Shown: one piece after another, positions 1,434 through 18,728 of the stretch
Layout of the letters: every line of letters starts with the position of its first letter
Numbering within the stretch: the stretch's first letter is position 1
Virus record (IMG/VR): IMGVR_UViG_2654588181_000008
Location: 1 to 18,728 of that record
From: a virus
Lineage: Duplodnaviria; Heunggongvirae; Uroviricota; Caudoviricetes
Direction: 5' to 3' (one strand)
Length of the DNA stretch: 18,728 nt
Made by a program: the position numbers and the translations under genes
Notes under the pieces: model-generated
The model's input: only the letters and a program-made list of their open reading frames with translations
Told to the model about the DNA's origin: nothing
The model's database searches: none

Positions 1434-1448
1434 AGTTTCCTCCCGGTA

Positions 1449-2105: not shown

Positions 2106-2163
2106 TACTAATCACGACAAACAACGGCTCGCCACAAGCCATATCTAGAAGGAATGTTGCCTT
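2106..2163. promoter_or_regulatory. Lysis-lysogeny switch region between cI and apl (promoters and operators expected here)
   Basis: 58-bp gap between the leftward cI and rightward apl/cII operon; in 186-type phages the lytic and lysogenic promoters sit at this junction. No individual promoter hexamers are assigned with confidence. Confidence 0.35.
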
Positions 2164-2367: not shown

Positions 2368-2431
2368 TAGACGTCTATTTTCGCAATAAGACGCTGAGTT
2401 CGATTTTGCGATAAGTTCGGAGTTGAAAACC

Positions 2432-2941
2432 ATGTTTGATTACCAAGTTTCCAAACATCCACATTTTGATGAAGCCTGTCGTGCATTCGCACTGCGCCAC
2501 AATCTGGTGCAACTGGCAGAACGTGCGGGCATGAATGTGCAGATTCTGCGGAACAAGCTGAACCCAGCTCAACCTCATTTATTAACCGCACCAGAAATCT
2601 GGCTGCTTACCGATCTGACTGAAGATTCAACGTTGGTAGATGGTTTTCTGGCACAGATTCACTGCCTGCCATGCGTACCAATTAATGAGGTGGCAAAAGA
2701 GAAACTGCCACATTACGTCATGAGTGCAACCGCAGAGATCGGGCGTGTTGCTGCAGGTGCGGTATCTGGCGATGTAAAAACCAGTGCAGGTCGTCGTGAT
2801 GCTATCAGCAGCATTAACTCTGTAACACGACTGATGGCGTTGGCTGCTGTTTCATTGCAGGCCCGTTTACAGGCTAACCCTGCGATGGCGAGTGCAGTTG
2901 ATACCGTGACTGGCCTCGGTGCTTCATTCGGTTTGCTGTGA
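2432..2941 (+). CDS. cII: CII-like lysogeny establishment activator (186 CII family)
   Basis: 169-aa product starting [45 protein letters not shown]..., which matches phage 186 CII as I recall it, including its length. ATG 2432 with GGAG 9 nt upstream; the track start at 2423 is TTG. Confidence 0.8.
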
Positions 2942-2948
2942 GGTGCTT

Positions 2949-3245
2949 ATGCTGACGAAAGAACCATCATTTGCATCGCTGCTGGTAAAACAAAGCCCGG
3001 CAATGCACTACGGTCACGGCTGGATCACGGGTGAGGATGGAAAACGCTGGCATCCATGTCATTCACAAGATGAATTGCTGTCTGAATTGACCACGAGGAA
3101 ACGGAGAAAGTCCAAATGTATGCGGCAGAAAGTGAAGTGGTTTATCAGTTTCGTTACAGAGGGGAGAGTTATTCAGTACCTGAAGATGATTTGCTCTGTT
3201 GCTATCCGTCATTGTCGGGCGATGGCAGTTACTTTTTCGCGTTAA
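2949..3245 (+). CDS. Hypothetical early protein
   Basis: ATG 2949 with GAGGTG upstream; product MLTKEPSFASLLVKQSPAMHYGHGWITGEDGKRWHPC.... Overlaps the next ORF by 130 nt in another frame, so the end is uncertain. Confidence 0.4.
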   Translation: MLTKEPSFASLLVKQSPAMHYGHGWITGEDGKRWHPCHSQDELLSELTTRKRRKSKCMRQKVKWFISFVTEGRVIQYLKMICSVAIRHCRAMAVTFSR

Positions 3246-3340
3246 AGGATGGGACGTTTTTACGGGGAGAGCAGGTTAAAGAGACGATACGAAAAAATGT
3301 ATCTCCTCTTGAGCGTTACCGTAAGAACAAAGAACGATAG
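3116..3340 (+). CDS. Hypothetical early protein
   Basis: ATG 3116 with GGAGAAAG Shine-Dalgarno 6 nt upstream; 74 aa. Confidence 0.45.
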   Translation: MYAAESEVVYQFRYRGESYSVPEDDLLCCYPSLSGDGSYFFALKDGTFLRGEQVKETIRKNVSPLERYRKNKER

Positions 3341-3362
3341 CTGCGTTTGGGGGATATGAAGT

Positions 3363-3704
3363 ATGGCAATTAATGGCGCTGCAGCAACTGTTCCATTAAG
3401 CCCCGGTGAACGCCTGAATGGACTTAATCACATTGCGGAGTTAAGGGCGAAAGTATTTGGCCTGAATATTGAGTCAGAGCTTGAGCGGTTTATTAAAGAT
3501 ATGCGTGATCCACGGGATATCAATAACGAACAGAATAAACGAGCACTGGCTGCCATATTCTTTATGGCAAAAATTCCAGCTGAACGTCATAGCATCAGCA
3601 TTAATGAGCTGACCACTGACGAAAAGCGGGAGTTGATTAAAGCAATGAATCATTTTCGTGCAGTGGTGAGCTTATTTCCCAGACGGCTAACCATGCCGAA
3701 TTAA
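3363..3704 (+). CDS. Hypothetical early protein
   Basis: 113-aa ORF in the early operon, ATG 3363 preceded by a G-rich stretch. Confidence 0.55.
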   Translation: MAINGAAATVPLSPGERLNGLNHIAELRAKVFGLNIESELERFIKDMRDPRDINNEQNKRALAAIFFMAKIPAERHSISINELTTDEKRELIKAMNHFRAVVSLFPRRLTMPN

Positions 3705-3771
3705 CCAACTAATGAAATTAATGGCGTAAACCCGCCGGGTATCCCTTTATCTAAATTCAGGAGAATTGATT

Positions 3772-4005
3772 ATGCGTAATATTGAAACCCTCAAGACTAA
3801 AACCGGACCGGATGATGCAGGGCTTAATATTTTACTGACAGAGGCTCGTCTGGAAGAACGCCGGGCAAGGGCTGAAGCAATGGCAGCTCGCCTTGATAGC
3901 CTGGCGTGTCATATCACATCCCGCCAGCTAAACCACGTCGAAGCAGCAGAACTACTGCGTGTAACTGCTGAAGCAATCCAGAACGAAGCGCAGGAGATCC
4001 ACTAA
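3772..4005 (+). CDS. Hypothetical early protein
   Basis: ATG 3772 with AGGAG 8 nt upstream (track start 3766 is TTG); 77 aa; its stop overlaps the next start as TAATG. Confidence 0.55.
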   Translation: MRNIETLKTKTGPDDAGLNILLTEARLEERRARAEAMAARLDSLACHITSRQLNHVEAAELLRVTAEAIQNEAQEIH

Positions 4006-4232
4006 TGGCTGATGCAATGGATCTCGTACAGCAGCGCGTTGAAGAAGAACGCCAGCGCCATATCCGTGCTGCCCGTGCCAAAACGCCGGGCGTGTCCCGC
4101 GTGCTTTGCATTGAGTGTGAAGCGCCAATTCCGCCAGCACGCCGCCGCGCCATTCCAGGTGTGCAGCTTTGCATTACCTGTCAGGAAATCGCAGAGCTGA
4201 AAGGCAAACATTACAACGGAGGTGCTGTATGA
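4005..4232 (+). CDS. TraR/DksA-family C4 zinc-finger protein
   Basis: CIECEAPIP...CITCQE gives a CxxC-x17-CxxC arrangement typical of TraR/DksA-like phage proteins; ATG 4005 with AGGAG upstream. Confidence 0.65.
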   Translation: MADAMDLVQQRVEEERQRHIRAARAKTPGVSRVLCIECEAPIPPARRRAIPGVQLCITCQEIAELKGKHYNGGAV

Positions 4233-5086
4233 GCACCATCCTGAAATGGGCGGGAAATAAAACCGCCGTAATGTCCGAACTGAAAAAACATCTTCCAGCT
4301 GGCCCGCGACTGGTTGAACCTTTCGCGGGTTCCTGTGCTGTGATGATGGAGACGGATTATCCCAGCTATCTGGTTGCGGATATTAATCCTGATTTAATCA
4401 ACCTCTATAAAAAGGTTGCCGCTGATTGTGAATCGTTTATATCTCGCGCCAGAGTTTTATTTAAGGAAGCAAACAGGGAGGTGGCTTATTACAACATAAG
4501 GCAGGAGTTTAATTACTCAACTGAAATTACTGATTTCATGAAAGCGGTATATTTCCTGTATCTCAATCGTCACGGTTACCGTGGGTTATGTCGCTATAAC
4601 AAGAGCGGGCATTTCAACATTCCCTACGGTAATTATAAAAATCCGTATTTCCCTGAAAAAGAAATTCGCGCATTTGCAGAGAAAGCCCAACGAGCAACGT
4701 TTATCTGCGCCAGCTTTGATGAAACGCTGGCGATGTTGAAGGCGGGGGATGTGGTGTATTGCGATCCGCCGTATGACGGTACGTTTTCCAGCTATCACAC
4801 TGATGGTTTCACTGAAGATGACCAGTATCACCTGGCATCCGTTCTTGAACATCGGTCATCAGAAGGACATCCGGTCATTGTTTCTAACAGTGACACATCC
4901 CTGATCCGTTCGCTGTATCGCAATTTTACTCACCACTACATCAAGGCAAAACGCAGCATCGGCGTAGCAGCTGGTGAGAGTAAATCTGCAACAGAAATCA
5001 TCGCTGTTTCTGGGGCGCGCTGCTGGGTGGGATTTGATCCTTCGCGTGGCGTGGATAGTTCTGCCGTGTACGGAGTGCGTGCATGA
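4229..5086 (+). CDS. dam: DNA adenine methyltransferase, Dam (GATC) family
   Basis: [35 protein letters not shown] and VVYCDPPY motifs, near-colinear with E. coli Dam as I recall it. ATG 4229 with GGAGG upstream and ATGA overlap with the preceding ORF; the track start at 4169 is an upstream extension. Confidence 0.9.
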
Positions 5087-7497
5087 GCCATGCTGATATG
5101 AACAACTGCAGCGGCTTTAACGAGGCCGCCGCAGCATTCTCATGGAACAGCCCGAAAAAGGCGATTAACCCTTATCTGGACCCGGCGGAAGTTGCGCCGG
5201 TTTCTGCGCTTTCAAACCTGATCACTCTGTACGCTGCCGATAACAAGCAGGAACAACTGCGCCGCGAGGCACTGAGTGATCAGGTCTGGGAGCGTTATTT
5301 CTTTAATGAATCCCGTGATCCTGTCCAGCGCGAAATGGAGCAGGATAAGCTCATTAGCCGGGCAAAGCTGGTGCATGAGCAGCAGCGTTTTAATCCGGAC
5401 ATGGTCATACTGGCGGACGTTAACGCCCAGCCTTCCCATATCAGCAAGCCGCTGATGCAACGTATTGAATACTTCAGCAGCCTGGGCAGGCCAAAGGCTT
5501 ATTCCCGCTATTTGCGTGAGACGATTAAACCATGTCTGGAACGACTGGAGCATGTACGCGACAGCCAGCTATCTGCATCTTTTCGTTTTATGGCAAGCCA
5601 TGAAGGGCTGGACGGCCTGCTGATCTTGCCTGAAATGAGTCAGGATCAGGTGAAGCGCCTGTCTACCCTTGTTGCCGCGCATATGAGCATGTGCCTTGAT
5701 GCAGCTTGTGGTGATTTGTATGCCACCGATGACGTTAAGCCAGAAGAAATCCGCAAGACATGGGAAAGGGTGGCGGCGGAAACCCTGCGTCTGGATGTCA
5801 TCCCTCCTGCGTTTGAGCAACTCCGCCGGAAAAGAAACCGCCGTAAACCCGTACCCTATGAACTCATTCCGGGTTCGCTGGCGCGTATGTTGTGCGCCGA
5901 CTGGTGGTATCGGAAATTATGGAAGATGCGTTGCGAATGGCGGGAAGAGCAGTTGCGTGCTGTTTGCCTGGTCAGCAAAAAAGCATCTCCCTATGTCAGC
6001 TATGAAGCCGTGATGCATAAACGTGAGCAGCGCCGTAAGTCGCTGGAGTTTTTCCGTTCTCATGAACTGGTGAACGAAGACGGCGACACGCTGGATATGG
6101 AGGACGTGGTAAACGCCAGTAGTAGCAACCCGGCGCATCGCCGCAATGAGATGATGGCATGTGTTAAAGGTCTGGAGCTTATCGCGGAAATGCGCGGTGA
6201 CTGCGCCGTTTTCTACACCATCACCTGTCCGTCACGTTTCCATTCCACGCTAAATAACGGCAGGCCCAACCCGACTTGGACAAATGCGACGGTAAGACAA
6301 AGCAGTGATTATCTGGTCGGCATGTTTGCTGCATTTCGTAAGGCGATGTACAAAGCCGGATTGCGCTGGTATGGCGTGCGGGTGGCTGAGCCGCATCATG
6401 ACGGTACAGTTCACTGGCACCTGTTGTGTTTTATGCGCAAAAAAGATCGCCGCGCCATTACTGCTTTGTTGCGTAAGTTTGCCATTCGTGAAGACCGCGA
6501 GGAGCTGGGTAATAACACAGGACCACGCTTTAAGTCTGAGCTGATAAACCCGCGCAAAGGTACACCAACAAGCTACATCGCGAAATACATCAGTAAGAAC
6601 ATTGACGGGTGTGGTCTGGCTGGCGAGATCAGCAAGGAAACGGGTAAATCTCTGCGTGATAACGCTGAATACGTTAATGCCTGGGCGTCTCTGCATCGTG
6701 TTCAGCAATTCCGCTTCTTTGGCATTCCGGGGCGTCAGGCTTACCGTGAACTGCGATTGCTGGCTGGTCAGGCGGCAAGGCAACAGGGTGACAAAAAAGC
6801 AGGTGCGCCGGTACTGGATAACCCGCGCCTTGATGCCATTCTGGCTGCAGCTGATGCTGGTTGCTTTGCCACCTACATCATGAAGCAGGGCGGCGTACTG
6901 GTTCCCCGTAAATATCACCTCATCAGAACCGCTTATGAAATCAACGAAGAGCCGACCGCCTATGGCGATCACGGTATTCGTATTTATGGCATCTGGTCAC
7001 CCATTGCAGAGGGCAAGATCTGCACTCATGCAGTGAAGTGGAAAATGATCCGTAAAGCCGTTGACGTTCAGGAGGCGGCAGCCGACCAGGGCGCTTGCGC
7101 CCCTTGGACTCGTGGCAATAACTGTCCCCTTGCTGAAAATTTGAACCAACAAGGGAAAGACAAATCAGCTGATGGGGACTCCATAACGGATATTACCCGT
7201 ATGAATGACAAGGAGTTGCACGATTACCTGCACAGTATGAGCAAAAAAGAGCGCCGGGAACTGGCTGCAAGGTTACGCCAGGTGAAACCGAAACGGCGTA
7301 AAGACTACAAACAGCGAATTACAGACCATCAGCGACAGCAGCTCGTCTATGAGCTGAAGTCCAGGGGATTTGATGGCAGCGAGAAAGAAGTCGATTTGCT
7401 CCTTCGCGGCGGCAGTATTCCGTCAGGAGCAGGCCTGCGTATCTTCTATCGGAACCAGCGTCTGAAGGAAGATGATAAGTGGCGGAACCTGTATTAA
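5083..7497 (+). CDS. A: Replication initiation protein A (rolling-circle endonuclease, P2 gpA family)
   Basis: 804-aa ORF containing [17 protein letters not shown] and a catalytic-tyrosine region typical of P2 gpA-like proteins; ATGA overlap with dam at 5083-5086. Confidence 0.9.
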
Positions 7498-7566
7498 TTA
7501 CGCGGGTTAACAATTCGTGCTCTTAATAATGCCAGGCATATCAGGCCGATGAACGTAAAAAAACGT

Positions 7567-7609
7567 TTTACATCAGTAAGATTATTATATACTGTAAATA
7601 TAAACAGTA
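7567..7609 (+). promoter_or_regulatory. SOS-regulated promoter: sigma70-like -35 TTTACA (7567-7572) with a LexA box TACTGTAAATATAAACAGTA (7590-7609) over the -10 region
   Basis: Perfect CTGT-N8-ACAG dyad with an AT-rich spacer, 40 bp upstream of a strong AGGAGG ribosome-binding site and ATG 7650. Confidence 0.7.
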
Positions 7610-7649
7610 GTTATGCATACAGTATTGTTTTGGTGTCATAGGAGGAAAG

Positions 7650-7838
7650 ATGCAGGACTATTTTTTGGAGTCTTTGAAGCTCCAGCGCATTGATTTTTTT
7701 CTTAAGCTTGTAGCGGCTAGTGAGTGTAGTGATGAAGAGAAGGGGCTGGCTCTGCAGTGGGTTTCTGAACTGACAGATGAACTCATGGCAAAAATCAGAA
7801 GCCACGAATACAACCGCTCAATGGATGTCATCAGCTGA
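7650..7838 (+). CDS. SOS-controlled small protein, possibly the N-terminal part of a Tum-like antirepressor
   Basis: AGGAGG 4 nt upstream of ATG 7650; 62 aa; directly downstream of the LexA box and 10 nt before the DinI-like gene. Confidence 0.55.
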   Translation: MQDYFLESLKLQRIDFFLKLVAASECSDEEKGLALQWVSELTDELMAKIRSHEYNRSMDVIS

Positions 7839-7848
7839 GGTGACTTTT

Positions 7849-8082
7849 ATGCGCATTGAAATAATGATCGATAAAGAGCAGAAGATTAGCCAGTCTACCC
7901 TGGACGCCCTTGAATCCGAGCTTTACCGCAATCTGCGCCCCCTGTATCCCAAAACGGTAATTCGCATTCGCAAAGGTAGCTCTAACGGTGTGGAACTAAC
8001 CGGACTGCAACTGGATGAAGAAAGAAAACAAGTGATGAAAATTATGCAGAAGGTGTGGGAGGACGACAGCTGGCTGCATTAA
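7849..8082 (+). CDS. DinI-like protein (DinI/MsgA family)
   Basis: MRIEIMIDKEQKISQSTLDALESELYRNL...QKVWEDDSWLH aligns by eye with E. coli DinI (MRIEVTIAK...DALAGELSRR...QETWESADDW). GAGGTG upstream of ATG 7849. Confidence 0.8.
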   Translation: MRIEIMIDKEQKISQSTLDALESELYRNLRPLYPKTVIRIRKGSSNGVELTGLQLDEERKQVMKIMQKVWEDDSWLH

Positions 8083-8090
8083 GAAACGTT

Positions 8091-8126
8091 GCCCCCAGGA
8101 GGATTCATTCTGATGGGGGCTAGTTT
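8091..8126 (+). terminator. Putative hairpin terminator after the DinI-like gene
   Basis: GCCCCCA (8091-8097) and TGGGGGC (8114-8120) form a 7-bp GC stem with a 16-nt loop, followed by TAGTTT; the T tract is weak. Confidence 0.3.
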
Positions 8127-8488
8127 GGGTAACGAGTGAAACGAGGCGTAAGGTGGGCGGCCATTTTGATAAGTGATTGTACGATTTGTGTTGTGAGTTC
8201 AACGGGTCGATGCAACGCTATCCTTAATCAAGGGCACGTTGCTCATACCCATCGATGCAATGAAAATCCATACTCATGGGGAAGACCAGAATGTCCCTGC
8301 CTTTTTCATTTTGTTCAGCACATGCACTATGGCCATTGCCTTCCCAAGCTAGCTATCGTAATCACTCAGCGTCAGTAAACTACTGAAAAATTGTTTTACC
8401 TTGTATATCAATAATGCCAAATCATACCCAAAAAATAGAAAATAATTAGATCGACAGGCAGAAGGCAATGTGAATAATCTTAAAAACC

Positions 8489-8518
8489 TTGACTGCCAGT
8501 GAGGTTTGGTTCTATAAA
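8489..8518 (+). promoter_or_regulatory. Putative sigma70 promoter for darTG (TTGACT-N18-TATAAA)
   Basis: TTGACT at 8489-8494 and TATAAA at 8513-8518, about 30 nt upstream of the darT start. Confidence 0.4.
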
Positions 8519-8549
8519 TAGACTTACGACTTTGAAAGGATGAGTTGAA

Positions 8550-9131
8550 ATGAGCGAAAGGAAAAGAATTGAAGATCAGTATCTTCTCTATCATTTAACA
8601 TGTATGGATAATCTACCTAGTATTTTAGACACAGGATTAAGATCTCGTGCATCAGTAAAAGGTGAGTTTGTTGATGTGGCCGACGGTGAAATAATAACAG
8701 GACGCGAAGCATTAAATTTGCAAACAATGGTTCCTTTTCATTTCTTTACTAAGAATCCATTTGATGGAAGAGTCCTGAAAGATCATAAGGAAAAATCATT
8801 TTGTATTATTTCGGTTTGTCGGGCATTTGCCAAAGAAAATGGTTGGAAAGTTATCCCTAAACATCCATTATCCACCAGTTCTGTTATAGACCTCTTAGAT
8901 TATGAACAAGGAATGGCCCAAATTGACTGGGAGCTTATGAATATAAGGGATTATAAAAATGCAGAATGCAAATCTGTATGTATGGCTGAGTGTTTATCAA
9001 GTGTAACGGTCGAGCCGAAAAATTTCCATTGCATCTTTGTCAAAAATGATAACGAAAAAAAATATGTTGAAAGGTTGATAAAACAACAAGGATTAAGTAT
9101 ATTGATAACGATCAACACTTATATGTTCTAA
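8550..9131 (+). CDS. darT: DarT-like ssDNA ADP-ribosyltransferase toxin (DUF4433 family)
   Basis: N-terminal LLYHLTCMDNLPSILDTGLRS matches the DarT/DUF4433 signature (LYHxTh..NL.SIL..GL) as I recall it; a C-terminal AECL segment is a candidate for the catalytic glutamate. 193 aa, AT-rich, directly followed by a macrodomain gene. Confidence 0.8.
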   Translation: MSERKRIEDQYLLYHLTCMDNLPSILDTGLRSRASVKGEFVDVADGEIITGREALNLQTMVPFHFFTKNPFDGRVLKDHKEKSFCIISVCRAFAKENGWKVIPKHPLSTSSVIDLLDYEQGMAQIDWELMNIRDYKNAECKSVCMAECLSSVTVEPKNFHCIFVKNDNEKKYVERLIKQQGLSILITINTYMF

Positions 9132-9135
9132 TTCT

Positions 9136-10107
9136 ATGATTAAGTATGCAAGCGGAAATCTTCTAAACTCTACATCGCAAGCTCTTGTGAATGCTGTAAA
9201 CTGCCAAGGAGTCATGGGAAAGGGTATCGCTTTGGCTTTTAAAGAAACTTTTCCCTATAATTTCGAAGTTTATAAGAGAGCATGCGCCACTGGTACAATG
9301 AAAATTGGACAGGTTTTAATTGTAGAGGAAAAGGGAAAAATAATTGTAAACTTTCCCACTAAAGATAGTTGGAGAAAAAAATCAACATATGATTTCATCT
9401 CGCAAGGCCTTGAATCTTTAGCAAAAATTATAGACGAAAAAAAAATTACATCAATATCAATACCACCTTTAGGCTGTGGTAATGGGGGCCTCGATTGGAA
9501 TAAGGTTGAGGCTCTTATTTTAAAAACTTTTCAAAATTTAGATAATGTTGATGTGGTAATTTATCCGCCTGCAACTAACAATCAACTTTCAAAAAATAAA
9601 AATGTTATTAATGCTAAGCATCTTTTGGTTCACTACGCCTATGGAAAATTAAAAGTTAAGCAAAAATATTCCCTTTATACAGTTTTTTATATTTGCGAAT
9701 GTATTGAGAAAGCAAATCTTTTTTTATTCGATTTTAAACATGGTCGGCCATACTCTTCTGAGTTAGAAAATATTATGAAGGATATAGCAAACCTTAAAGT
9801 TGAGTTGCAAGGAGATTTTGATGCTTTTATTGAAGATTATATTAATACTCATCAATCCAAAGAGTTACAAACCGAGTTTGGTAAACTAATCTCAACTTTA
9901 AATCCAAGTATAAGTTTGCTCAATGCTCTTAAAAATAAGATTGATTATACAGATAGCGTATATGTGATTACGAGAATTGCTAAAGAAAAAGATCATGGCT
10001 TGCATATTGACAATTTCAAAGAATATGAAAATATTGTGCAGCATTTAATTAAAAATGGATTGGTAATCGAAGATATTTTTAACGAACTAAAAATAAAGGG
10101 AAGTTAG
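9136..10107 (+). CDS. darG: DarG-like antitoxin: N-terminal macrodomain (ADP-ribosyl hydrolase) plus C-terminal domain
   Basis: GNLLNSTSQALVNAVNCQGVMGKGIALAFKETFP and PPLGCGNGGLDW are classic macrodomain motifs; starts 4 nt after darT. 323 aa. Confidence 0.8.
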   Translation: MIKYASGNLLNSTSQALVNAVNCQGVMGKGIALAFKETFPYNFEVYKRACATGTMKIGQVLIVEEKGKIIVNFPTKDSWRKKSTYDFISQGLESLAKIIDEKKITSISIPPLGCGNGGLDWNKVEALILKTFQNLDNVDVVIYPPATNNQLSKNKNVINAKHLLVHYAYGKLKVKQKYSLYTVFYICECIEKANLFLFDFKHGRPYSSELENIMKDIANLKVELQGDFDAFIEDYINTHQSKELQTEFGKLISTLNPSISLLNALKNKIDYTDSVYVITRIAKEKDHGLHIDNFKEYENIVQHLIKNGLVIEDIFNELKIKGS

Positions 10108-10713
10108 TAGCGCTATTTTCAATTTTTTTGCTGAAATTGCGCATGCACACTCTCACGCATTATAGATGCGGCGTTAATCCCGCCAGGAGTGTTGTTTAAT
10201 AAATTGAACTATTTCTGCATTGAAGGATCAACTTACGCATTCGCTGACAACGCAGGCACTCTCCTGGCTAAGCAGAAATTCAGAGTAACCAACTGGCACT
10301 TTTACAACAATTTTATTATCAGTTGCGGCTCCATGACTTTCTGGTGGGATAACAAAGCAATTAAGGCGTGGTATTGTAAGTATCCCGCATAATCATGCTA
10401 GTAACATTTGTCCCCCATGTAACCTAATTAAGGCAACTTCCGCTCTTCGCTCACAGTGAACCTCCATGTTTGTAAACCCGTATATTTCGTTTTTTAAGTG
10501 GTCATTCAGATACGGATTTTCACTTCTCTTGGCTGTGCATGACTATGCTGCATGAAATTGCATGATCGTTTGAGGATCGTTTTTGCTGAGGCCCCCCAGA
10601 ACTGGCGGGCTTTCGCTTATGTCATGCAGGTGCATGAAAATCACTGCATAAAGCGGGCAGGCGTGGCGGGGATACGAGCGCGCGTTAAGCTTCTCACATC
10701 AAGTCCAAAGTTC

Positions 10714-10742
10714 TTGCAACCCAAAAAGCTTACCTTTATCTT
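10714..10742 (+). promoter_or_regulatory. Putative sigma70 promoter for the three-gene operon (TTGCAA-N17-TATCTT)
   Basis: Hexamers at 10714-10719 and 10737-10742, about 35 nt upstream of ATG 10778; the -10 match is imperfect. Confidence 0.3.
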
Positions 10743-10777
10743 TCAATGAGATTTGTCTGCAAAAGTAAGGAAATGAA

Positions 10778-11842
10778 ATGGCAGAGAATGGCCCTATTGA
10801 AGACTTAGCAAAACGCATTTCTAACGATCTTATGAGTCGTTTTAAGTGGCAACAGCATGGCCCCTGTGACCAAGATTTCTCTTGTGATAATGAAACAAAA
10901 CATAAGCCTGAAGGTAAAAAACAAAAGCACACACACCCAGTGGATGTGGTATTTAGTTATAAAGATCCATATTTAAATAAAATTATTTATTTAAATACTG
11001 ATTTGAAAAGTTATAAGGCTGGTTCTATTAATGCAACAAAGATAGAGTCTGCATTAGAGTCTTTAGCAAAAACAATTGATTGTGCTCGATATAGCCAGGA
11101 ATGGTCAGAAAAATATAACTTTTCTCAAATTGATTTCGAAGTTCGAGGTTTATTATTTGTTTTTAATCATGATAATCAATTGCAACATGATTTTTATGAT
11201 TTCTTTAATCCTCCTAAACCTACTAAAGGAAGGAGAGATAAGGCTGTAAACTTAGAAAAGATTCCGTTATGTGCTGGTCAGCAAATTCATATAATTGATC
11301 CATTTCTTATTAATTATATGTTGGCAGTAACGAATGATATGAATGACTTAATTGCAAAAAAAGAATTTCCAGATGAGGATTATGGATTCTATTATCCTCA
11401 ACTTATTTTCCATAAGGTTGCTGTAACTGAAAAATACCTTCCTGCAACTATTGAAGTTTTGTTATCACCATTTATGATTATTAAACATGGTCCTGTTTAT
11501 AAATTCAATAGGGCTAAAGGTATTGAGGAAATGGTTTATCCAGAGGGATTTGTTATATATTACAATAGAAAAGGTAATAGCGATAATGAATTCTTTTATT
11601 TGCTAGACTTGCTTTCTAATTATCAAATTTTAGATGGTATAAATAAAATTAGAATAAGATTGGCGTATCGTGAGAAAGATAATAGAGTTATGTCGCATTT
11701 TCAGCGTGGGATCGAAAAGTATGTTCATGAGTATGGACTGGATGAAGAGGCTAAAAAGAGACTTGAAGATCTGGATGTCAAAGTTGTCTCTACTGTAAAA
11801 GAATTCTTTTCTTCTGAGGTTATTTCTTGGGAGCCGAAATGA
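10778..11842 (+). CDS. Unknown protein A of three-gene cargo operon (354 aa); possible PD-(D/E)xK-type nuclease motif near the N-terminus
   Basis: ATG 10778 with AAGGAA Shine-Dalgarno. HPVDVVF...IIYLNTDLK fits the hhhD-x(n)-(D/E)xK pattern. No Walker A and no transmembrane segment. Stop overlaps the next start as ATGA. Confidence 0.8.
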   Translation: MAENGPIEDLAKRISNDLMSRFKWQQHGPCDQDFSCDNETKHKPEGKKQKHTHPVDVVFSYKDPYLNKIIYLNTDLKSYKAGSINATKIESALESLAKTIDCARYSQEWSEKYNFSQIDFEVRGLLFVFNHDNQLQHDFYDFFNPPKPTKGRRDKAVNLEKIPLCAGQQIHIIDPFLINYMLAVTNDMNDLIAKKEFPDEDYGFYYPQLIFHKVAVTEKYLPATIEVLLSPFMIIKHGPVYKFNRAKGIEEMVYPEGFVIYYNRKGNSDNEFFYLLDLLSNYQILDGINKIRIRLAYREKDNRVMSHFQRGIEKYVHEYGLDEEAKKRLEDLDVKVVSTVKEFFSSEVISWEPK

Positions 11843-12903
11843 AAAATATTCATAGTGTAACTGACAAGGCTTTATGTGATGCTTTGAATCAAAAGCAGAT
11901 TACATTAAATGAAATACAGGATCTTTTCTTGGAAAGAGGTACTATTATTTGTAAAAAAACCCCTAGAAAAGATCTAGCCAAAAACTACTCTCGGATGACT
12001 CATGATTATTATGAACATCAGAAGATAGCAACATTACTCGGAGGTCAGACAAGAGCTGAAAAAAATACATGTGTAAGAATTGAATCTAGTGTCACTAAGG
12101 ACGATATCATAGTGGCAGCAGAGAAGTTAAAAAAAGAAATAACTGCTCAGGATGATTATTGTAAAATTATTATTGATGGTTCTCGAGTTCTTATAGATAT
12201 AAGATATCTATCGACCAATTATAGTAAAAGCGATTTTAAGCAGGCTGTAAATAAAGAAGCTTTAATTGAAATCGAGCCTATTGATAAAGGTTATAGCATC
12301 CGTCGTCCCGATAACGAGAATCTCAAAGATTATGAAGATCTCCTCCTCGGGCATATAATTTCGATTCAGAGTGAACAAGATAATGACAGTAATCTTGATT
12401 TAAAATTAAACGAAATTACTCTTGCTCATAATAGCTCCGCAGATGTTAGGACACTGTTTTTCGATAAATTAATCCGTAGCCTAGATGGATATGAATTAGA
12501 CGATGTTACGGATGCTTATGTATATCATCCAAAACCTGAAACAATAGAAGCAGAAGAGGGAAATACTGAAACTGGAGTTCATGTGTCAAAAGCATCTCTG
12601 AAAGGAGAGGGAGTTCTTAAATCTGATGAACTTAGTGATCTTTATGATAGGGGCTTTTATATCTGGAAAATAAAATGGAAGGTTAAAGAGAAACTAGCAG
12701 ACCCAGATATTTATGAACTCGAAGCTCAATTCGGAGATCCACTAAACTGTACTAATTTTTCATATTTAGTAAAAGGAGTGAAAAAATATAAGTCTAACGG
12801 TCAATATTTCAGTAAACCTCAAAAGCTTTCAGCTAGAGAAACCGATAGATTTAATAAATTAATTGAAAATAGAGCTTATTCTATTATAATGGAAATTAGC
12901 TAA
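11839..12903 (+). CDS. Unknown protein B of three-gene cargo operon (354 aa)
   Basis: ATG 11839 with GGGAG 5 nt upstream, coupled to gene A by the ATGA overlap (track start 11827 is TTG). No recognisable motifs; acidic and soluble. Confidence 0.8.
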   Translation: MKNIHSVTDKALCDALNQKQITLNEIQDLFLERGTIICKKTPRKDLAKNYSRMTHDYYEHQKIATLLGGQTRAEKNTCVRIESSVTKDDIIVAAEKLKKEITAQDDYCKIIIDGSRVLIDIRYLSTNYSKSDFKQAVNKEALIEIEPIDKGYSIRRPDNENLKDYEDLLLGHIISIQSEQDNDSNLDLKLNEITLAHNSSADVRTLFFDKLIRSLDGYELDDVTDAYVYHPKPETIEAEEGNTETGVHVSKASLKGEGVLKSDELSDLYDRGFYIWKIKWKVKEKLADPDIYELEAQFGDPLNCTNFSYLVKGVKKYKSNGQYFSKPQKLSARETDRFNKLIENRAYSIIMEIS

Positions 12904-12922
12904 TTCATCATAAGGAGTGGAT

Positions 12923-13618
12923 ATGTCACAGTTAAGATTAAAGTGGATGAGATTAAAGATCAGAACCAGTTCTGAAGCGATCTTTGATTTTATCAAAAAC
13001 ACCCCTTATTCTGATGCTATTGGTGCTGGTTTTACTAAGTTTGAAACTATTCACAATGGAATATCTGCGACTTTTAATAAAAAAACTATAATGTTGGAGC
13101 CAGTTTCTGATCCATTTGGTGATATTTTAGAGTTCGAAAGGATTGTTTTTGAACAGATTGGTTTTTCTATCCAAACATTAAGTAATAAATTATGTTTGTT
13201 GACTTTTTATAATCCTCCAAAGACAGTTAAGTCTTTTATTGATTTCTTGTCAAAAGGTGAAGGGGTAAATGTTGCCTATGGAAACTTGACGGTAGATCTC
13301 AAGGCTTTTATGAAAATAATTAGGGAGGAGTTTGGAGTCAAAGTCTTCGCCATCTCAAAGGTGAAAGTTTCAAATGTTCCTGTTACTGATAAAACAAGGG
13401 CGTGTTTAGAGCTGAATTCTAGTGGAGATGCTCTAAATGATTTGAAAAAATTTGTTTTGGATAATGATTTTAAACTCGATAAAATAAAAGTTGGGGGGCT
13501 ATATCATGACTCTAAATTTAGCTTTGAACTAACTAGTGGAGCCTCGGCAATAATTCCTGAAGAACATGTGTCGGTCTTTAATGATGCTATTTCTTATATG
13601 GAGCTTGCTAAATTTTAA
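12923..13618 (+). CDS. Unknown protein C of three-gene cargo operon (231 aa)
   Basis: ATG 12923 with AAGGAG 7 nt upstream (track start 12917 is GTG); 19 nt after gene B; followed by a strong hairpin terminator. Confidence 0.8.
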   Translation: MSQLRLKWMRLKIRTSSEAIFDFIKNTPYSDAIGAGFTKFETIHNGISATFNKKTIMLEPVSDPFGDILEFERIVFEQIGFSIQTLSNKLCLLTFYNPPKTVKSFIDFLSKGEGVNVAYGNLTVDLKAFMKIIREEFGVKVFAISKVKVSNVPVTDKTRACLELNSSGDALNDLKKFVLDNDFKLDKIKVGGLYHDSKFSFELTSGASAIIPEEHVSVFNDAISYMELAKF

Positions 13619-13625
13619 AATGTAG

Positions 13626-13660
13626 AGGGTGCCATTGCTTAAATGATGGCACCCTATTTT
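13626..13660. terminator. Rho-independent hairpin terminator, likely bidirectional
   Basis: AGGGTGCCAT (13626-13635) pairs with ATGGCACCCT (13646-13655), a 10-bp stem with a 10-nt loop, followed by ATTTTT. It sits between the convergent three-gene operon and the portal remnant. Confidence 0.6.
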
Positions 13661-13665
13661 TAAAA

Positions 13666-14316
13666 TTAGTTTATATCGTCAAATGTATATTTCATAAATT
13701 GCATGACATGGTCGCCTATCCATTCGTTTAGTTCTTTAATTCTTTGTTGTAGAGGCGTTAACTCATTACGTACAAAGACACGGCTTGCCTTCTCCACATC
13801 CCCAAAACCCCCAACATTATTAGGCATTATCCCCATCATCTGTGGCGGAACGCGATGTGCTGCCATCATGTCATCGCGGCTGACATTTTTGATATTCAGA
13901 AACTCATCCTTCGCCGCAACTTCTGACAAAGGGATGATCTGAAGGCCGTCCTTTTTGCCGTTAGGCGAGTACATAAACAGGTTGCGGAAGTTGCCTGGAC
14001 CTTTGGCGCTTTTCATCGCGTTGCGGAGGTTGTTCACGTCCTCCTGGTTCTGCGCAGCGTCGGTCATGTACATGATGAAGCCAGCATGACTGCCGTTAAT
14101 GTAATACTTTCGACGGAACAGCGTGGCAGACTCATTGAGCAGGGCGGACGGAATGGCAGAAAGATAGCCGGGCAGGCCGTAGATCTCCTGGTTAATGTCC
14201 GGTTCCATCAGATGAAAAATGCTGCCTTTCGTGAACTGATACGGCTGGGTTGTCATACCGTATTGCACAAACCAGTAGGTATTGCCTTCTGGATCACTCG
14301 TAACCAGATGGCGCAA
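13666..14316 (-). pseudogene. Q: Portal protein (P2 gpQ-like) remnant, N-terminally truncated
   Basis: 216-aa minus-strand ORF; the portal assignment rests mainly on position and orientation (first late gene, leftward, as in P2), and intact P2 Q is about 340 aa. No ATG start: the first in-frame codon is TTG, and it abuts the lysB start with an 11-nt gap. Confidence 0.55.
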
Positions 14317-14327
14317 CAGGTAGCAGC

Positions 14328-14756
14328 ATGAACCGGTTGCTGCTGGTTGTGCTGGCGTTATTACTGGCGTCGCTGGGCTGGCAGACGTGGCGGCTGGCTG
14401 ATGCCAGCCAGACCATCAGCACGCAGGCAGACGAGCTGCGGAGCAAAAGTCAGGCACTGGCAAAGAGCAACAGCCAGCTTATCAGCCTGTCCATTCTGAC
14501 TGAAACCAATAACCGGGAGCAGGCGCGGCTCTATGCCGAAGCAGAACAGACCAGCGCGCTGCTGAGACAACGACAACATCGGATTGAGGAACTGAAACGT
14601 GAGAACGAGGATTTACGCCGCTGGGCTAATACTCCTTTGCCTGCTGACATTATCCGGCTGCGGGAACGTCCGGCACTCACCGGAGGTGCAGCTTACCGTC
14701 AGTGGTTGTCCGCGAGTGACGCCGTGTCAGCTGGATCAGGCAGCGCCACACAATAA
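14328..14756 (+). CDS. lysB: LysB-like i-spanin (Rz-like)
   Basis: N-terminal transmembrane segment LLLVVLALLLASLGW followed by charged coiled-coil-like sequence; an overlapping lipoprotein ORF is embedded in another frame. Confidence 0.7.
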   Translation: MNRLLLVVLALLLASLGWQTWRLADASQTISTQADELRSKSQALAKSNSQLISLSILTETNNREQARLYAEAEQTSALLRQRQHRIEELKRENEDLRRWANTPLPADIIRLRERPALTGGAAYRQWLSASDAVSAGSGSATQ

Positions 14757-14889
14757 CGGTGATCTGAACGCATTGCTGGATGAAACGGAGGCCGCCTGGG
14801 CGGTCTGTGCAGACAAAGTGGACATGATTATTGCGTGTCAGGAGCGAAACAGTGAACAAACCACAATCCCTGCGCCACGCCCTCAATAA
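14599..14889 (+). CDS. lysC: LysC-like o-spanin (Rz1-like outer-membrane lipoprotein)
   Basis: Signal peptide MRTRIYAAGLILLCLLTLSGC with lipobox LSGC; overlaps lysB out of frame, the typical Rz/Rz1 arrangement. The start is GTG, so the exact start is uncertain. Confidence 0.6.
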   Translation: MRTRIYAAGLILLCLLTLSGCGNVRHSPEVQLTVSGCPRVTPCQLDQAAPHNNGDLNALLDETEAAWAVCADKVDMIIACQERNSEQTTIPAPRPQ

Positions 14890-15199
14890 AGCGGTGCCTT
14901 ATGTCCGTAATAACCCGGACAAACTGCATCTGTTTGTGGATAACGGTTCGCTGGTTGCCACCGGGGCCAGCTCCATGTCATGGGAGTACCGCTACACCCT
15001 GAACGTGGTGATTGAAGATTTCAGCGGCGACCAGAATCTGCTGATGGCCCCGGTTTTGCTGTGGCTGCGGGATAACCAGCCTGATGCCATCAATAACCCG
15101 ACGTTACGGGAAAAGCTATTCACATTTGAGGTGGATATTCTGCGCAACGATGTCTGTGATATCAGCCTGAACCCGAGAAGAAAGAAAGCACCACGGTGA
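14852..15199 (+). pseudogene. R: Tail completion protein R (P2 gpR-like), C-terminally truncated
   Basis: NKPQSLRHALNKAVPYVRNNPDKLHLFVDNGS...LLWLRDNQPD resembles the P2 gpR N-terminal two-thirds as I recall it; ends early after about 115 aa with an unrelated basic tail. GTG start with AGGAG upstream. Confidence 0.5.
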
Positions 15200-15564
15200 A
15201 GCGTAAGCGCAGGACTAAGAAGCAGAAGAAAGAGCCGGAAGCGAAGCAGGGCGATTACCTGGTGGGTACGGATGAAAACGTGCTGGTACTTAATCGCACT
15301 TATGCCAACCGGAGCAACGCCGAACGAGCGGCGAAAATGCAGTGGGAACGCCTGCAACGCGGCGTTGCGTCATTCTCGCTACAACTGGCAGAAGGTCGGG
15401 CAGATCTCTACACGGAAATGCCTGTGAAGGTCAGTGGCTTTAAACAGCCGATAGATGATGCGGAATGGACCATTACCACCCTGACGCATACTGTCAGCCC
15501 GGATAACGGTTTTACGACCAGTCTGGAGCTTGAAGTGAAGATTGATGATTTCGAAATTGAATGA
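15196..15564 (+). pseudogene. D: C-terminal fragment of tail protein D (P2 gpD-like)
   Basis: ORF ending ...VKVSGFKQPIDDAEWTITTLTHTVSPDNGFTTSLELEVKIDDFEIE directly upstream of ogr, where the D C-terminus sits in P2. No ATG start (GTG overlapping the R-fragment stop). Only about 120 aa against roughly 390 for an intact D. Confidence 0.45.
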
Positions 15565-15654
15565 TTCTTCGCAATGGAGAACTTTTAAGTTTTCAAAATG
15601 GAATAATGCGGTATCATTATTGTGAATTTAGCAAAAATGGGGAGAACTCGAAAA

Positions 15655-15873
15655 ATGATGATTTGCCCACTGTGTGGAAGTGCCGCCCATACTCGCAGCA
15701 GTTTTCAGGTATCTTCATTGACCAAAGAGCGTTACAACCAGTGCCAGAACATTAACTGCAGCCATACTTTTGTTACCCATGAAACTTTTGTTCGTTCGAT
15801 TGCAACGCCAAAAGAGTCAAATCCGGTTCAGCCGCATCCAATGAAATCAGGACAGGTGGCGCTCTCTCTTTGA
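15655..15873 (+). CDS. ogr: Ogr/Delta-family zinc-finger late transcription activator
   Basis: 72-aa product MMICPLCGSAAHTRSSF...KERYNQCQNINCSHTF... with the CxxC-x22-CxxxxC pattern and strong resemblance to P2 Ogr as I recall it; ATG 15655 (track start 15622 is an upstream extension). Confidence 0.9.
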   Translation: MMICPLCGSAAHTRSSFQVSSLTKERYNQCQNINCSHTFVTHETFVRSIATPKESNPVQPHPMKSGQVALSL

Positions 15874-15950
15874 CTCTGCCGCCAATTTGTCGCCATCGTT
15901 AAAAAACACTGCTTCTAACATCATGATTTTAAAAGGCATAAATTTCAGGC

Positions 15951-15996
15951 AACAAAAAACCCATCAACCTTGAACCGAAATGGCGGGGTTGATGGG
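15951..15996 (-). terminator. Rho-independent terminator of ybjL
   Basis: CCCATCAACC (15960-15969) pairs with GGTTGATGGG (15987-15996); an A run on the plus strand at 15951-15959 gives a T run after the hairpin on the minus strand, downstream of ybjL. Confidence 0.5.
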
Positions 15997-16108
15997 CTCC
16001 ACAAAATGGGGACATCAAAGAAAAGCAGTGGCACTAATTAAGACTGATGCCCTGCGGAAAAGTTCTGCGGTTGTGCAAAAAAATTTCATTTTCAGGGCAA
16101 CTTCAGTT

Positions 16109-17794
16109 TTATCCTAATCCTGGCCATACCATGACGATGATTGTCCCTGCCAGCGTCAGCAGGACGTTGGCGATTGCATAGGTGCCCGCATAGCCCAGCG
16201 CCGGGATGTTACTGCGAGCTGTATCACTGATGATCTCCATTGCCGGCGCGCAGGTACGTGCGCCCATCATTGCGCCGAACAACAGTGCGCGGTTCATTCG
16301 CAATACATAAGCACCGAACAAGAAACAGATAACCACGGGCACCAGACTGACAATCAATCCGGCAATCAACATCTGACCGCCAATCGCGCCCAGGCCGTTA
16401 TTAATACCGCTACCGGCGCTCAGACCAACGCCTGCCATAAACACCATCAAGCCGAACTCTTTCACCATGCTTAATGCACCTTGCGGAATGTAACCGAAGG
16501 TCGGGTGGTTAGCACGCATAAAGCCCAGCATAATTCCGGCGAATAACAACCCGGCAGCGTTCCCCATGCCGAAACTGAATGTGCTGAACTGGAAGGTGAT
16601 CATCCCGATCATCAGCCCAATAACAAAGAAGGCGCAAAATGCCAGCAGGTCAGTGACCTGGCTGTGAATCGAGATAAAGCCGATGCGATCGGCGATGGTT
16701 TTTACGCGACGGGCATCACCGCTGACTTGTAAAACGTCACCTTTGTTAAGCACGACGTTGTCATCTATCGGCATCTCAATCTGGCTACGAATGACGCGGT
16801 TAAGGAAGCAACCGTGATCGGTCAACTTCAGTTGTGCGAGACGTTTACCTACAGCGTTATGGTTTTTAACGACCACTTCTTCAGTGACGATACGCATGTC
16901 GAGAAGGTCACGATCGAAAACTTCTTTACCGTTACGGAAGCTGGGATCGAGTCGGGCATGGGCGTCGGGATAGCCTACCAACGCTATTTCATCGCCCATT
17001 TGTAGCACGGCATCACCGTCTGGATTTGCCAGAATCCCGTTACGTCGAATACGTTCAATGTAGCAGCCGGTTTGTCGATAAATACCCAGTTCACGCAGAT
17101 TTTTGCCGTCGGTCCAGGCCACCAGCTCCGGGCCGACGCGATAGGCGCGGATCACCGGTAAATAAACCTTACGGTTGGCATCAGTGTCCAGGCCACGTTC
17201 GCGGGCGATTTGCTGGGCGCTGGTCTGTAAGTCCTGATGCTGCAATTTCGGCAAGTAACGCGCACCAACAATCAAACTCACCAGACCGATTAAATAGGTT
17301 AAGGCATACCCGAGGCTCAGATTATCCAGTGCCAGTGAGAGCTGCCTGCTTTCCATGCCGGAATGACGCAGTGTATCGCCAGCACCGACCAGAACCGGTG
17401 TCGACGTCATAGAGCCTGCTAACATACCGGCCGTCAGGCCAATATCCCAGCCAAACAGCTTACCTAACCCTAAGGCGATCACCAGCGCACTGCCAACCAT
17501 CACCAGTGCTAACATTAGGTAATTTTTCCCATCGCGAAAAAAAATGGAAAAAAAGTTCGGTCCGGCTTCGACCCCGACGCAGAAAATAAACAGCATAAAG
17601 CCAAGATTAAGCGCATCGGTGTTAATGCTGAAATGTTGTTGGCCTAATAACAGCGATACGACTAAAACGCCAATGGAATTACCCAGTTGGATCGAACCAA
17701 GTCGTAACTTTCCGAGACATAGCCCAAGCGCGAGGACCACAAATAATAACAGAATGTAATTCCCATTTAACAATTCGGCGACGTTTATATTCAC
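16109..17794 (-). CDS. ybjL: Putative transport protein YbjL (two-domain membrane transporter with central TrkA-C-like domains)
   Basis: 561-aa polytopic membrane protein beginning [29 protein letters not shown]..., recognised as E. coli YbjL; GTG start. Confidence 0.85.
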
Positions 17795-18063
17795 GGAGGC
17801 TAACTTCTTGTTTACTAGTAAGCTGTTGAAAGAAATGGTAATTTACGATAATGTTTTTTACCAGAATTCAGGGCGCAGATTCATTCAGCGCACCTAAACG
17901 ATAGTAAAGTAACAATATATTTTACTAGTGTAATCACATTAGGTATCAACGGCTATATGAATTGCGTTGGCCTATATTAGCATGGAATGCGAAGCGGCTT
18001 TATCTTACTGAACGCCACACTGGCGAAAAATGTGTTCGATAGACGCAGTGTCAGGAGGAACGA

Positions 18064-18441
18064 GTGAAACATAAACAACGTTGGGCGGGGGCAATCTGCT
18101 GTTTTGTCCTCTTCATTGTGGTGTGCCTTTTTCTGGCGACGCACATGAAAGGCGCTTTTCGGGCTGCCGGGCATCCTGAAATCGGCTTGCTATTTTTCAT
18201 TCTTCCTGGAGCAGTGGCCAGCTTCTTTTCACAGCGTAGAGAAGTCCTGAAACCTCTGTTTGGCGCAATGCTGGCGGCACCCTGTTCGATGCTCATTATG
18301 CGGCTGTTTTTTTCACCGACGCGCTCATTCTGGCAAGAGCTGGCATGGTTACTAAGCGCGGTGTTCTGGTGTGCGCTGGGGGCACTGTGTTTCTTATTTA
18401 TCAGTAGTTTGTTTAAACCACAGCACAGAAAAAATCAGTAA
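18064..18441 (+). CDS. ybjM: Inner membrane protein YbjM
   Basis: 125-aa hydrophobic protein MKHKQRWAGAICCFVLFIVVCLFLATH..., consistent with E. coli YbjM and the ybjL-ybjM-grxA gene order. Confidence 0.8.
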   Translation: MKHKQRWAGAICCFVLFIVVCLFLATHMKGAFRAAGHPEIGLLFFILPGAVASFFSQRREVLKPLFGAMLAAPCSMLIMRLFFSPTRSFWQELAWLLSAVFWCALGALCFLFISSLFKPQHRKNQ

Positions 18442-18460
18442 AGCCCTCAACGCGAGGGCT
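18442..18460. terminator. Hairpin between convergent ybjM and grxA, likely grxA terminator
   Basis: AGCCCTC (18442-18448) pairs with GAGGGCT (18454-18460) around a 5-nt loop; a T run follows on the minus strand (plus-strand A run 18430-18435). Confidence 0.5.
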
Positions 18461-18470
18461 TGTCAGACGA

Positions 18471-18728
18471 TCAGGCGTCCAGATTTTCTTTCACCCATGC
18501 AGCAAAATCGGTATAGCCGCCGATATGTTGCTGATCGACAAAAATCTGCGGCACGGTTTCTACGGGTTTACCTGCCTTTTGTTGTAGATCTTCTTTAGTG
18601 ATCCCTTCCGCACGAATATCTACATACTGATACTGAAAATCATCGCGTTCATTGCTCAATTTCTCAGCCAGATCTTTTGCACGCACACAGTAAGGGCAAC
18701 CCGAACGACCAAAAATAACGGTTTGCAT
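18471..18728 (-). CDS. grxA: Glutaredoxin 1
   Basis: 85-aa product MQTVIFGRSGCPYCVRAKDLAEKL... with the CPYC active site, recognised as E. coli GrxA; start codon is at the window edge (18726-18728). Confidence 0.9.
   Translation of the reverse strand: MQTVIFGRSGCPYCVRAKDLAEKLSNERDDFQYQYVDIRAEGITKEDLQQKAGKPVETVPQIFVDQQHIGGYTDFAAWVKENLDA

Follow-up and report, generated by a model that had tools for sequence, protein, structure and literature searches.

The 18,728-nt stretch of DNA analysed here (the window, positions 1 to 18,728 of IMG/VR virus record IMGVR_UViG_2654588181_000008) holds a defective P2/186-like prophage that extends from the integrase stop codon (1–3) to ~15895 at the rcdA-ybjL site of Escherichia coli. 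We find that positions 13666–14331 of this 15.9-kb element, where a remnant of the portal gene meets the 3′ end of lysA, are very probably the scar of a 6,697-bp internal deletion that arose by short-homology illegitimate recombination in the course of ordinary prophage decay. The feature is of a known kind, namely a deletion scar in a defective P2-like prophage, and its parental structure, exact breakpoints, microhomology, lost genes and intact cargo are demonstrated.

The parental structure is provided by an intact prophage found among the complete E. coli genomes, that of strain Br_178_kylling (NZ_CP182383.1; hereafter L003), which occupies the same rcdA-ybjL attachment site, carries the same DarTG, cos and three-gene cargo, and retains the full set of late genes; a second intact prophage, L002, was included in three-way alignments of the junctions. 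BLAST comparison to L003 resolves the window into three blocks: window 3363–14282 corresponds to L003 17432–28351 at 98.8% identity, with every mismatch left of ~7100; window 14280–15173 corresponds to L003 35046–35939 at 100% identity; and window 15169–16026 corresponds to L003 49082–49939 at 99.9% identity. The two prophages are thereby identical from ~7100 through both retained late blocks and differ in that L003 carries both missing segments (6,697 and 13,147 bp) as well as a small 333-bp gene, lacking in the window, between attL and int, and that the early region is 1–10% divergent. The original prediction, which was made from the sequence of the window alone, had described the cargo island upstream of the portal remnant as intact, and the stretch from ~7100 to 14282 indeed shows no mismatch to L003. 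The features that make up the junction are the following:

14280–14282: deletion junction 1, a 3-bp TAT microhomology (minimally TA) present in both parents (portal GGTAT/CCAGG; lysA CCGTTAT/TGCC)
13666–14282, minus strand: 3′ fragment of the portal gene (gpQ homologue), comprising part of codon 141, codons 142–345 and the stop codon
14283–14331, plus strand: 3′ remnant of lysA (DNZ54_00345 family), comprising the last 16 codons and the stop codon, 100% identical to L003 and sharing an ATGA overlap with the lysB ATG

In the three-way alignments the window follows the portal sequence to ...CAGTAGGTAT and then switches partner to lysA ...TGCCTTCTGG, with zero inserted bases. The portal arm extends to 14282, whereas the lysA arm is already matched from 14280, so that alignment to intact genomes, in the three-way comparisons and by BLAST alike, confines the breakpoint to 14280–14282, and the short direct repeat at the junction is the 3-bp TAT itself. 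The junction thus falls inside lysA, 45 nt upstream of the lysB ATG (14328), rather than at the end of the portal ORF 11 nt from lysB where it had been predicted. A deletion of several kilobases had also been anticipated, and relative to L003 28352–35048 a clean 6,697 bp are gone without filler DNA. Lost are portal codons 1–140, the terminase ATPase (P), scaffold (O), major capsid (N), terminase endonuclease subunit (M), head completion (L), tail protein X, holin (Y), lysozyme (K) and lysA codons 1–109. The terminase, scaffold, capsid, head-completion, holin and endolysin genes of the original prediction are all among them and lie between these points in L003, L002 and phage 500465-1 alike; lysA and X have to be added to that list. 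The divergent late promoters P_P and P_O, as positioned by the P2 annotation, fall in the deleted P-O interval. An intact colinear relative therefore holds the missing segment and the two arms abut without foreign DNA, as in a prophage made defective by internal deletion.

The portal fragment is contained in a mechanically called open reading frame (ORF) at 13666–14316 on the minus strand (216 aa, TTG start), which the ORF list confirms. Its product matches the Pfam family Phage_portal (PF04860) with 45.8 bits (cut-off 39.1) over profile positions 96–277 of 321, and ORF residues 12–216 are identical at 204 of 205 positions to residues 141–345 of the intact 345-aa L003 portal, which contradicts the alternative of a complete protein of another family; at the nucleotide level the fragment is identical to L003 throughout (617 of 617). 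Alignments to the L003 portal and to P2 gpQ (59% identity to gpQ residues 139–343) indicate that the C-terminus is complete and that the N-terminal 140 codons are gone. The prediction had correctly recognized the absence of an ATG start and of the N-terminus and had put the loss at roughly a third, which the alignments raise to 41%. ORF codons 1–11 (14283–14316; the top 34 nt, TTG included) are the antisense of the lysA 3′ end, and the TTG is no real start; the first in-frame ATG, at 14256, is the start from which gene callers derive a product of 196 aa. In place of a full-length portal of ~345 aa with its native start and P_P promoter, the window thus encodes residues 141–345 only, with lysA as the upstream DNA, and no promoter-like site near junction 1 stands above chance. 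We therefore regard the portal fragment, deprived of promoter and native start, as a dead pseudogene. Between its stop codon and the last cargo gene lies one further feature:

13626–13655, plus strand: terminator hairpin with a 12-bp stem

On the plus strand, 14086–14331 forms a chimeric 81-aa ORF in which antisense portal sequence is fused in frame to the last 16 lysA codons and which ends at the ATGA overlap. The ORF is probably fortuitous or meaningless and could couple translation into lysB if transcribed; we attach no meaning to it because TA lies mostly at codon position 3/1, so that in-frame joins are often to be expected.

Junction 1 is accompanied by a second deletion of similar make, and the late genes that survive between and beyond the two joints are few:

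15169–15173: deletion junction 2 (R to D), a 5-bp GAACC microhomology, with 13,147 bp missing (L003 35940–49086)
14328–14756, plus strand: lysB (Rz-like spanin), intact, 142 aa, identical to L003 lysB
14641–14889, plus strand: lysC (Rz1-like spanin), intact (Pfam PF23793 LysC; L003 annotation offset)
14852–15173, plus strand: 5′ fragment of tail completion gene R, 107 of 143 codons (Pfam PF06891, profile 2–106 of 133; alignment)
15174–15564, plus strand: 3′ fragment of gene D, the last ~129 of 366 codons (Pfam PF05954, profile 220–302 of 305)
15655–15873, plus strand: ogr (late-gene activator), intact (Pfam PF04606; L003 annotation)

Gone at junction 2 are S, V, W, J, I, H, G, the invertase, FI, FII, E, T, U and the D N-terminus. 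Both joints consist of a few base pairs common to both parents, TAT and GAACC, with no recombinase site or insertion sequence (IS) at the joint, and neither junction resembles the att core, the invertase site or the GpA nick site. In the P2 annotation the O operon starts between P and O; because P_O was in the deleted DNA, lysB and lysC are now promoterless, and the late promoters targeted by ogr are all deleted. The D-side end of junction 2 lies 7 nt from D breakpoint 49075 of two other remnants described below (L120 and L147).

Very probably, an ancestor essentially identical to the Br_178_kylling prophage lost the DNA from portal codon 141 to lysA codon 109. The ends were joined without filler at TAT, a signature of short-homology illegitimate recombination, by what we infer to be end joining or template switching, and a similar second event (R to D, at GAACC) stripped the tail genes. 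Both deletions are recent, because both late-region arms are identical or nearly so to the intact prophage. The loss of lethal lytic genes would presumably have been tolerated or favoured, with the immunity and replication functions and the defence cargo retained, and the element itself is expected to be incapable of making particles.

The outline of the element is consistent with this history. Its two ends are marked by an imperfect 20-bp direct repeat, CTGCCGCCA[C/A]TTTGTCGCCA:

21–40: attL core, CTGCCGCCACTTTGTCGCCA, overlapping the integrase gene at its 3′ end (stop codon, 1–3)
15876–15895: attR core, CTGCCGCCAATTTGTCGCCA, identical to attL at 19 of 20 positions and followed by ybjL

Because the repeat marks both ends, the element measures ~15.9 kb, roughly half a P2 genome, and the right end of the window (15900–18728) is filled by ybjL-ybjM-grxA of E. 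coli at 100% identity. The gene order read from Pfam matches is integrase, CI repressor, CII, Dam methylase, replication gene A, DinI, DarT, a macro-domain protein, three proteins without Pfam domains, the portal fragment, LysC, GpR, GpD and Ogr. This conforms to the P2/186-like (Peduoviridae) arrangement of int, CI, CII ... gene A, cargo/cos, Q ... lysB, lysC, R ... D, ogr and att, with the families Int, Phage_CI_repr, Phage_CP76, Phage_GPA, Phage_portal, LysC, P2_Phage_GpR, Phage_GPD and Ogr_Delta in that order, and the window is colinear with annotated P2-like prophages and phages. The gene set of a complete functional phage is absent: none of P, O, N, M, L, X, Y, K, S, V, W, J, I, H, G, FI, FII, E, T and U was found between attL and attR, which disposes of the possibility, raised with the original prediction, that structural genes are located elsewhere in the same element. 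A counterpart of the P2 ori nick site is present in gene A at window 7095–7115 (GCGCCCCTTGGACTCGTGGCAATAAC; P2, GCCGCGCCTCGGAGTCCTGTCAATAAC), and the replication origin region is therefore kept in the remnant. At the left end the integrase reading frame of the window continues straight into the att core; relative to window 1–44, L003 14001–14394 has an extra ~350-bp segment with a 270-bp hypothetical gene between the att core and the integrase end.

Junction 1 of the window is absent from all 5,426 complete E. coli genomes, in which 1,206 match either arm and none spans the joint. An exact 33-mer over the junction is likewise absent from metagenome contigs and species-representative genomes, and a degenerate pattern (portal 18-mer plus ND) run against metagenome, genome and IMG/VR contigs returned only synonymous intact-portal variants and chance matches. 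The same junctions do recur in a 200-kb contig (L008) of NCBI assembly GCA_900103855.1, which is found in two samples and is identical at 6,591 of 6,591 nt over a 6.6-kb stretch that covers both; it probably represents the source lineage, may be the window's own genome and is therefore not independent. An assembly artefact, with a collapsed or chimeric contig as the source of the joint, would account for a junction seen in one lineage only and missing from complete genomes, but we find it scarcely credible: the identical 6.6-kb stretch stands in a 200-kb NCBI contig from two samples, the two arms are not repeats of each other and hence give an assembler nothing to collapse, the host flank is intact and, like the second deletion, coherent, and analogous scars occur in finished genomes. 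It also seems very improbable that the element is a satellite-like mobile element that relies for its packaging on a helper, a P2-like phage resident in the same cell. Such an identity would suit the intact int, CI, CII, Dam, GpA, cos-like site, ogr and both att cores, and indeed a cos-like site and an integrase of its own are here combined with a lack of structural genes. Each junction type, however, is a singleton or a small clone (0 of 5,426 genomes for that of the window), with no sign of spread as a unit or across genomes; the Pfam-scanned ORFs show only P2/186 early genes, DarT/Macro cargo and late-gene fragments and no helper-exploitation genes, no search having been aimed at capsid-size or helper-manipulation genes; 15.9 kb is about half a P2 headful; and late-region arms 100% and 99.9% identical to an intact prophage imply a very recent deletion.

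Remnants comparable to that of the window are found in other strains. At least eight differently truncated P2-like remnants lie at rcdA-ybjL in complete E. coli genomes (L006, L007 and L117–L122), each of which keeps a different hotspot cargo (HIRAN, PIN, TIR, DUF262, AIPR, ComF-like and others). Because other E. coli strains bear differently truncated remnants at the same site, such prophage decay appears to be common; the portal-to-D remnant types are rare (15 of 5,426 genomes). The remnants of strains G4/9, SW071614, FDAARGOS_1250, 2017-03-3CC, 2017.11.01CC, E2, ACN001 and 13C1079T, at this same site, resemble the window in keeping the early region, a hotspot cargo, the 3′ (or whole) portal gene and ogr, in having lost the head, lysis and tail genes, and in microhomologies of 1–7 bp, and the portal breakpoint of SW071614 is that of the window. 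They differ from it in their cargos, partners and alleles and mostly in having one large portal-to-D deletion in place of the window's two, between which the window keeps lysB, lysC and the R fragment. Nearest in design is 13C1079T, whose deletion runs from the portal gene to just upstream of lysA, but with the portal breakpoint at nt 936 and with lysA intact. In common with defective or "grounded" prophages generally, the element of the window and the cryptic P2 remnant of K-12 (ogrK and part of D) have lost morphogenesis and lysis genes and retain some phage genes beside an att site. The K-12 remnant is far more reduced than the element of the window, which keeps the whole early region and the defence cargo and whose parent can be named.

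When the portal breakpoints of such remnants are placed on L003 coordinates, they do not scatter as the end points of illegitimate recombination would. We mapped contigs matching the 196-aa portal product, the truncated remnants of complete genomes and the matches of an IMG/VR pattern scan, and 11 of the ~22 distinct junction types (a small sample, in which four examples at the first site come from a targeted IMG/VR scan) begin at one of two positions, referred to as sites a and b. Site a, L003 28350–28353, is window 14280–14282, with the sequence ...CCAGTAGGTA/, and has at least seven different partners:

L003 35046, in lysA: the window and L008
L003 48451, in D: L010
L003 48721, in D: L118 (strain SW071614)
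L003 42160, in the invertase gene: L143
L003 46979, in the tape measure gene: L144
L003 49075, in D: L147
not found in L003: L146, a remnant that adjoins smpB, possibly at a different att site

Site b, L003 28439–28443, has the sequence ...CTCCAGGTA/, lies 89 bp from site a and has four partners:

L003 43593, in the sheath gene: L009 and L011
L003 48451, in D: L117 (strain G4/9)
L003 48609, in D: L119
L003 49075, in D: L120

Both sites lie directly after AG[G/A]TA. The remaining left breakpoints, at 28243, 28670, 28703, 28727, 29047, 29671, 30141, 30462, 30786 and 31402, were seen once each. Among the eight remnant types from complete genomes, for which the queries were not conditioned on a or b, one falls at a and three at b; under a uniform model over the ~1.6-kb detectable zone, at least three of eight within 5 nt of b would have a probability of the order of 1e-6, as a rough estimate. 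Control scans of IMG/VR, which covered two TA sites close by and the portal gene's third AGGTA, returned no junction, compared with four at a. On the right-hand side, TA stands at the crossover in every mapped partner bar that of L119 (A/AG), the L146 partner being unmapped, and the D partner sites 48451, 48721 and 49075 were used twice each. Because the mapped partners carry TA, the junctions at a and b fit a fixed left end ...AGGTA-3′ that pairs by its terminal TA. No reciprocal junction, with the sequence to the right of a or b retained, was found.

The junctions at a and b do not appear to be copies of one another. The portal arms of the remnants are 88–100% identical to L003; L010 and L117, which have a D breakpoint in common, differ at 57 of 1,485 positions of their D arms (96.2% identity); L009 and L117, which have site b in common, differ at 78 of 617 portal positions, with mismatches 3–17 nt from the joint; and L147 and L120, as well as L118 and L006, likewise differ in allele. 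As far as the alleles tell, the events look independent. Since other remnants break at the identical position, the portal gene was probably not cut there at random, and we take the hotspot to be real on present evidence. Separately, seven IMG/VR P2-like contigs (L051, L066, L073, L077, L086, L114 and L132) hold 290–860 bp of extra DNA at L003 28703–28817, where the 5′ end of the portal gene borders the terminase gene, and this boundary may be another hotspot, a small one for insertions.

A number of candidate causes for a preferred position were considered and rejected. A pseudo-origin for GpA, the rolling-circle nickase, finds no counterpart, in that the P2 nick site GCGCCTCG/GAGTCC and its window equivalent at ~7095–7110 are unlike both a and b; the att core is unrelated to either, which argues against a secondary integrase site. 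The tail-fibre DNA invertase acts at the crossover site TTCTCNNNNACC-TT-GGTTTGGGAGAA, which a and b do not resemble; its natural sites have a TT centre with AAACC/GGTTT arms, and site a has an AAACC half-site with the crossover 6 nt off. A hairpin or cruciform is not indicated, the fold being no better than that of shuffled sequence (z = 0.09); a Chi site is absent; and no intron, IS or homing-endonuclease insertion occurs at a or b in 114 portal-bearing loci. An anchored alignment of nine sites reveals no common motif past TA, and AGGTA by itself does not specify the position, as a third AGGTA of the portal gene gave no junctions and some alleles read AGATA at b. By inspection only, a CCWGG sequence (Dcm, Vsr or EcoRII) is adjacent to both sites as CCAGG, at differing offsets, and the geometry of a Type I-E CRISPR protospacer-adjacent motif, the DarT TNTC motif and the gyrase cleavage consensus do not fit both sites.

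Two observations weigh against the deletion-scar reading in its simple form. A purely random microhomology event does not predict that six other junction types should use the window's breakpoint and four more the neighbouring site b, and the junction of the window, missing from the complete-genome, metagenome and species-representative sets, has a history that rests on one lineage. One refinement, which would not displace the deletion-scar reading, may well be correct, although we stop short of favouring it: a site-preferring nick, double-strand break or replication arrest after ...AGGTA (window 14281) would start the deletion, the exposed ...TA-3′ end would join any downstream TA, and the recurrent process would disable P2-like prophages while sparing the adjacent cargo. 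Seven partners at a and four at b in differing alleles, mismatches within 3–17 nt of the common breakpoints, the occurrence of both sites in the unconditioned set of complete genomes, TA at nearly all crossovers and the empty IMG/VR controls all speak for it. The lack of an insertion, a stable hairpin or Chi at the sites, their dissimilarity to the GpA nick site, the att core and the invertase site, the want of a motif past TA and of reciprocal junctions, and a set of ~22 junction types whose IMG/VR examples at a come from a targeted scan all speak against it. Deletion hotspots at arrested forks (Ter sites) are reportedly of the same general form, with one fixed end and a variable short-homology partner (Bierne, Ehrlich and Michel). 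The pattern of a fixed end, many partners and tiny homology is the same at the portal sites, at which no Ter-like or other arrest signal is seen. The full proposal, that a and b are nucleotide-precise hotspots at which a site-preferring break, nick or replication arrest repeatedly starts rightward deletions to a downstream TA and so spares defence cargo, immunity and replication module, we put forward tentatively and with rather more doubt than conviction.

The recurrence could also stem from nested secondary deletions, in which an older ...GTA/X junction was trimmed to AGGTA at a or b by short-repeat slippage and the window's own junction is unrelated; a junction between b and a partner e common to both sites would, for instance, become an a-e junction via a 7-bp AGGTATC repeat 88 bp apart. 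It is in keeping with this that the b/e junction creates AGGTATC, a sequence that site a also has, that two partners each join both a and b, and that a further partner, f, joins a as well as a terminase breakpoint ending in GTA. Trimming is nonetheless unlikely, given that both arms differ in allele between L010 and L117, L147 and L120, and L118 and L006, that the window's junction cannot stem from any of these, since it keeps the lysB-R region which they lack and has both arms 100% identical to L003, and that trimming would still require a and b as preferred end points.

The cargo that the deletion left intact lies on both sides of a retained cos-like site:

8550–10107, plus strand: DarT-DarG cargo on the gene-A side of cos (Pfam DarT and Macro; PADLOC DarT 1e-36, DarG 2e-79)
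10628–10686, plus strand: cos-like site, retained, with the core GGCGTGGCGGGGATACGAG at 10660–10678, near-identical to the annotated putative cos of phage Cartapus
10778–13618, plus strand: three-gene cargo between cos and portal (PADLOC Hp1/Hp2/Hp3; 1e-64, 2e-39 and 1e-10), identical to L003

A noncoding block of ~150 nt around the cos-like site (10535–10690) is conserved in 82 phage records, which come from Klebsiella, Yersinia, Escherichia and Salmonella. The P2 cos 19-mer is absent from the window within 3 mismatches, and BLAST of the P2 left end gave no match; cos was instead placed through the comparison with phage Cartapus. Because the cargo island is split in its middle by the cos-like site, DarTG and the three-gene system would stand at opposite ends of the packaged genome. 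The cargo lies between gene A and the portal gene, beside cos, and matches defence models; by position and sequence it is putative defence cargo of the P2 gpA-gpQ hotspot. In its passages on that cos-adjacent hotspot of P2-like phages, the paper by Rousset et al. (2022, PMC9122126) includes a three-gene system without predicted domains that protects against P1, and the cargo of the window sits in exactly the locus given there, on both sides of cos and with a three-gene system included. A keyword search of the paper returned no "remnant", "defective" or "degraded", and as far as these terms reach it appears not to treat truncated prophages or breakpoints (PMC9122126). For the first product of the three-gene cargo, a precomputed annotation gives a PDDEXK_GAPS4 domain, and our own Pfam scan gave no match. 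Going by the naming, the P1-protecting three-gene system is probably PADLOC Hp1-3.

With an intact twin at the same attachment site, junction 1 offers an unusually clean before-and-after pair, in which two small-homology deletions suffice to turn a 35-kb phage into a 16-kb block that carries immunity, replication and two defence systems. If the breakpoints are indeed site-preferred, domestication in the P2-like family would not be a random walk but would follow a mechanistic bias that preserves the defence hotspot, and it would constitute a recurrent, quasi-programmed route by which E. coli makes P2-like phages into fixed defence islands.

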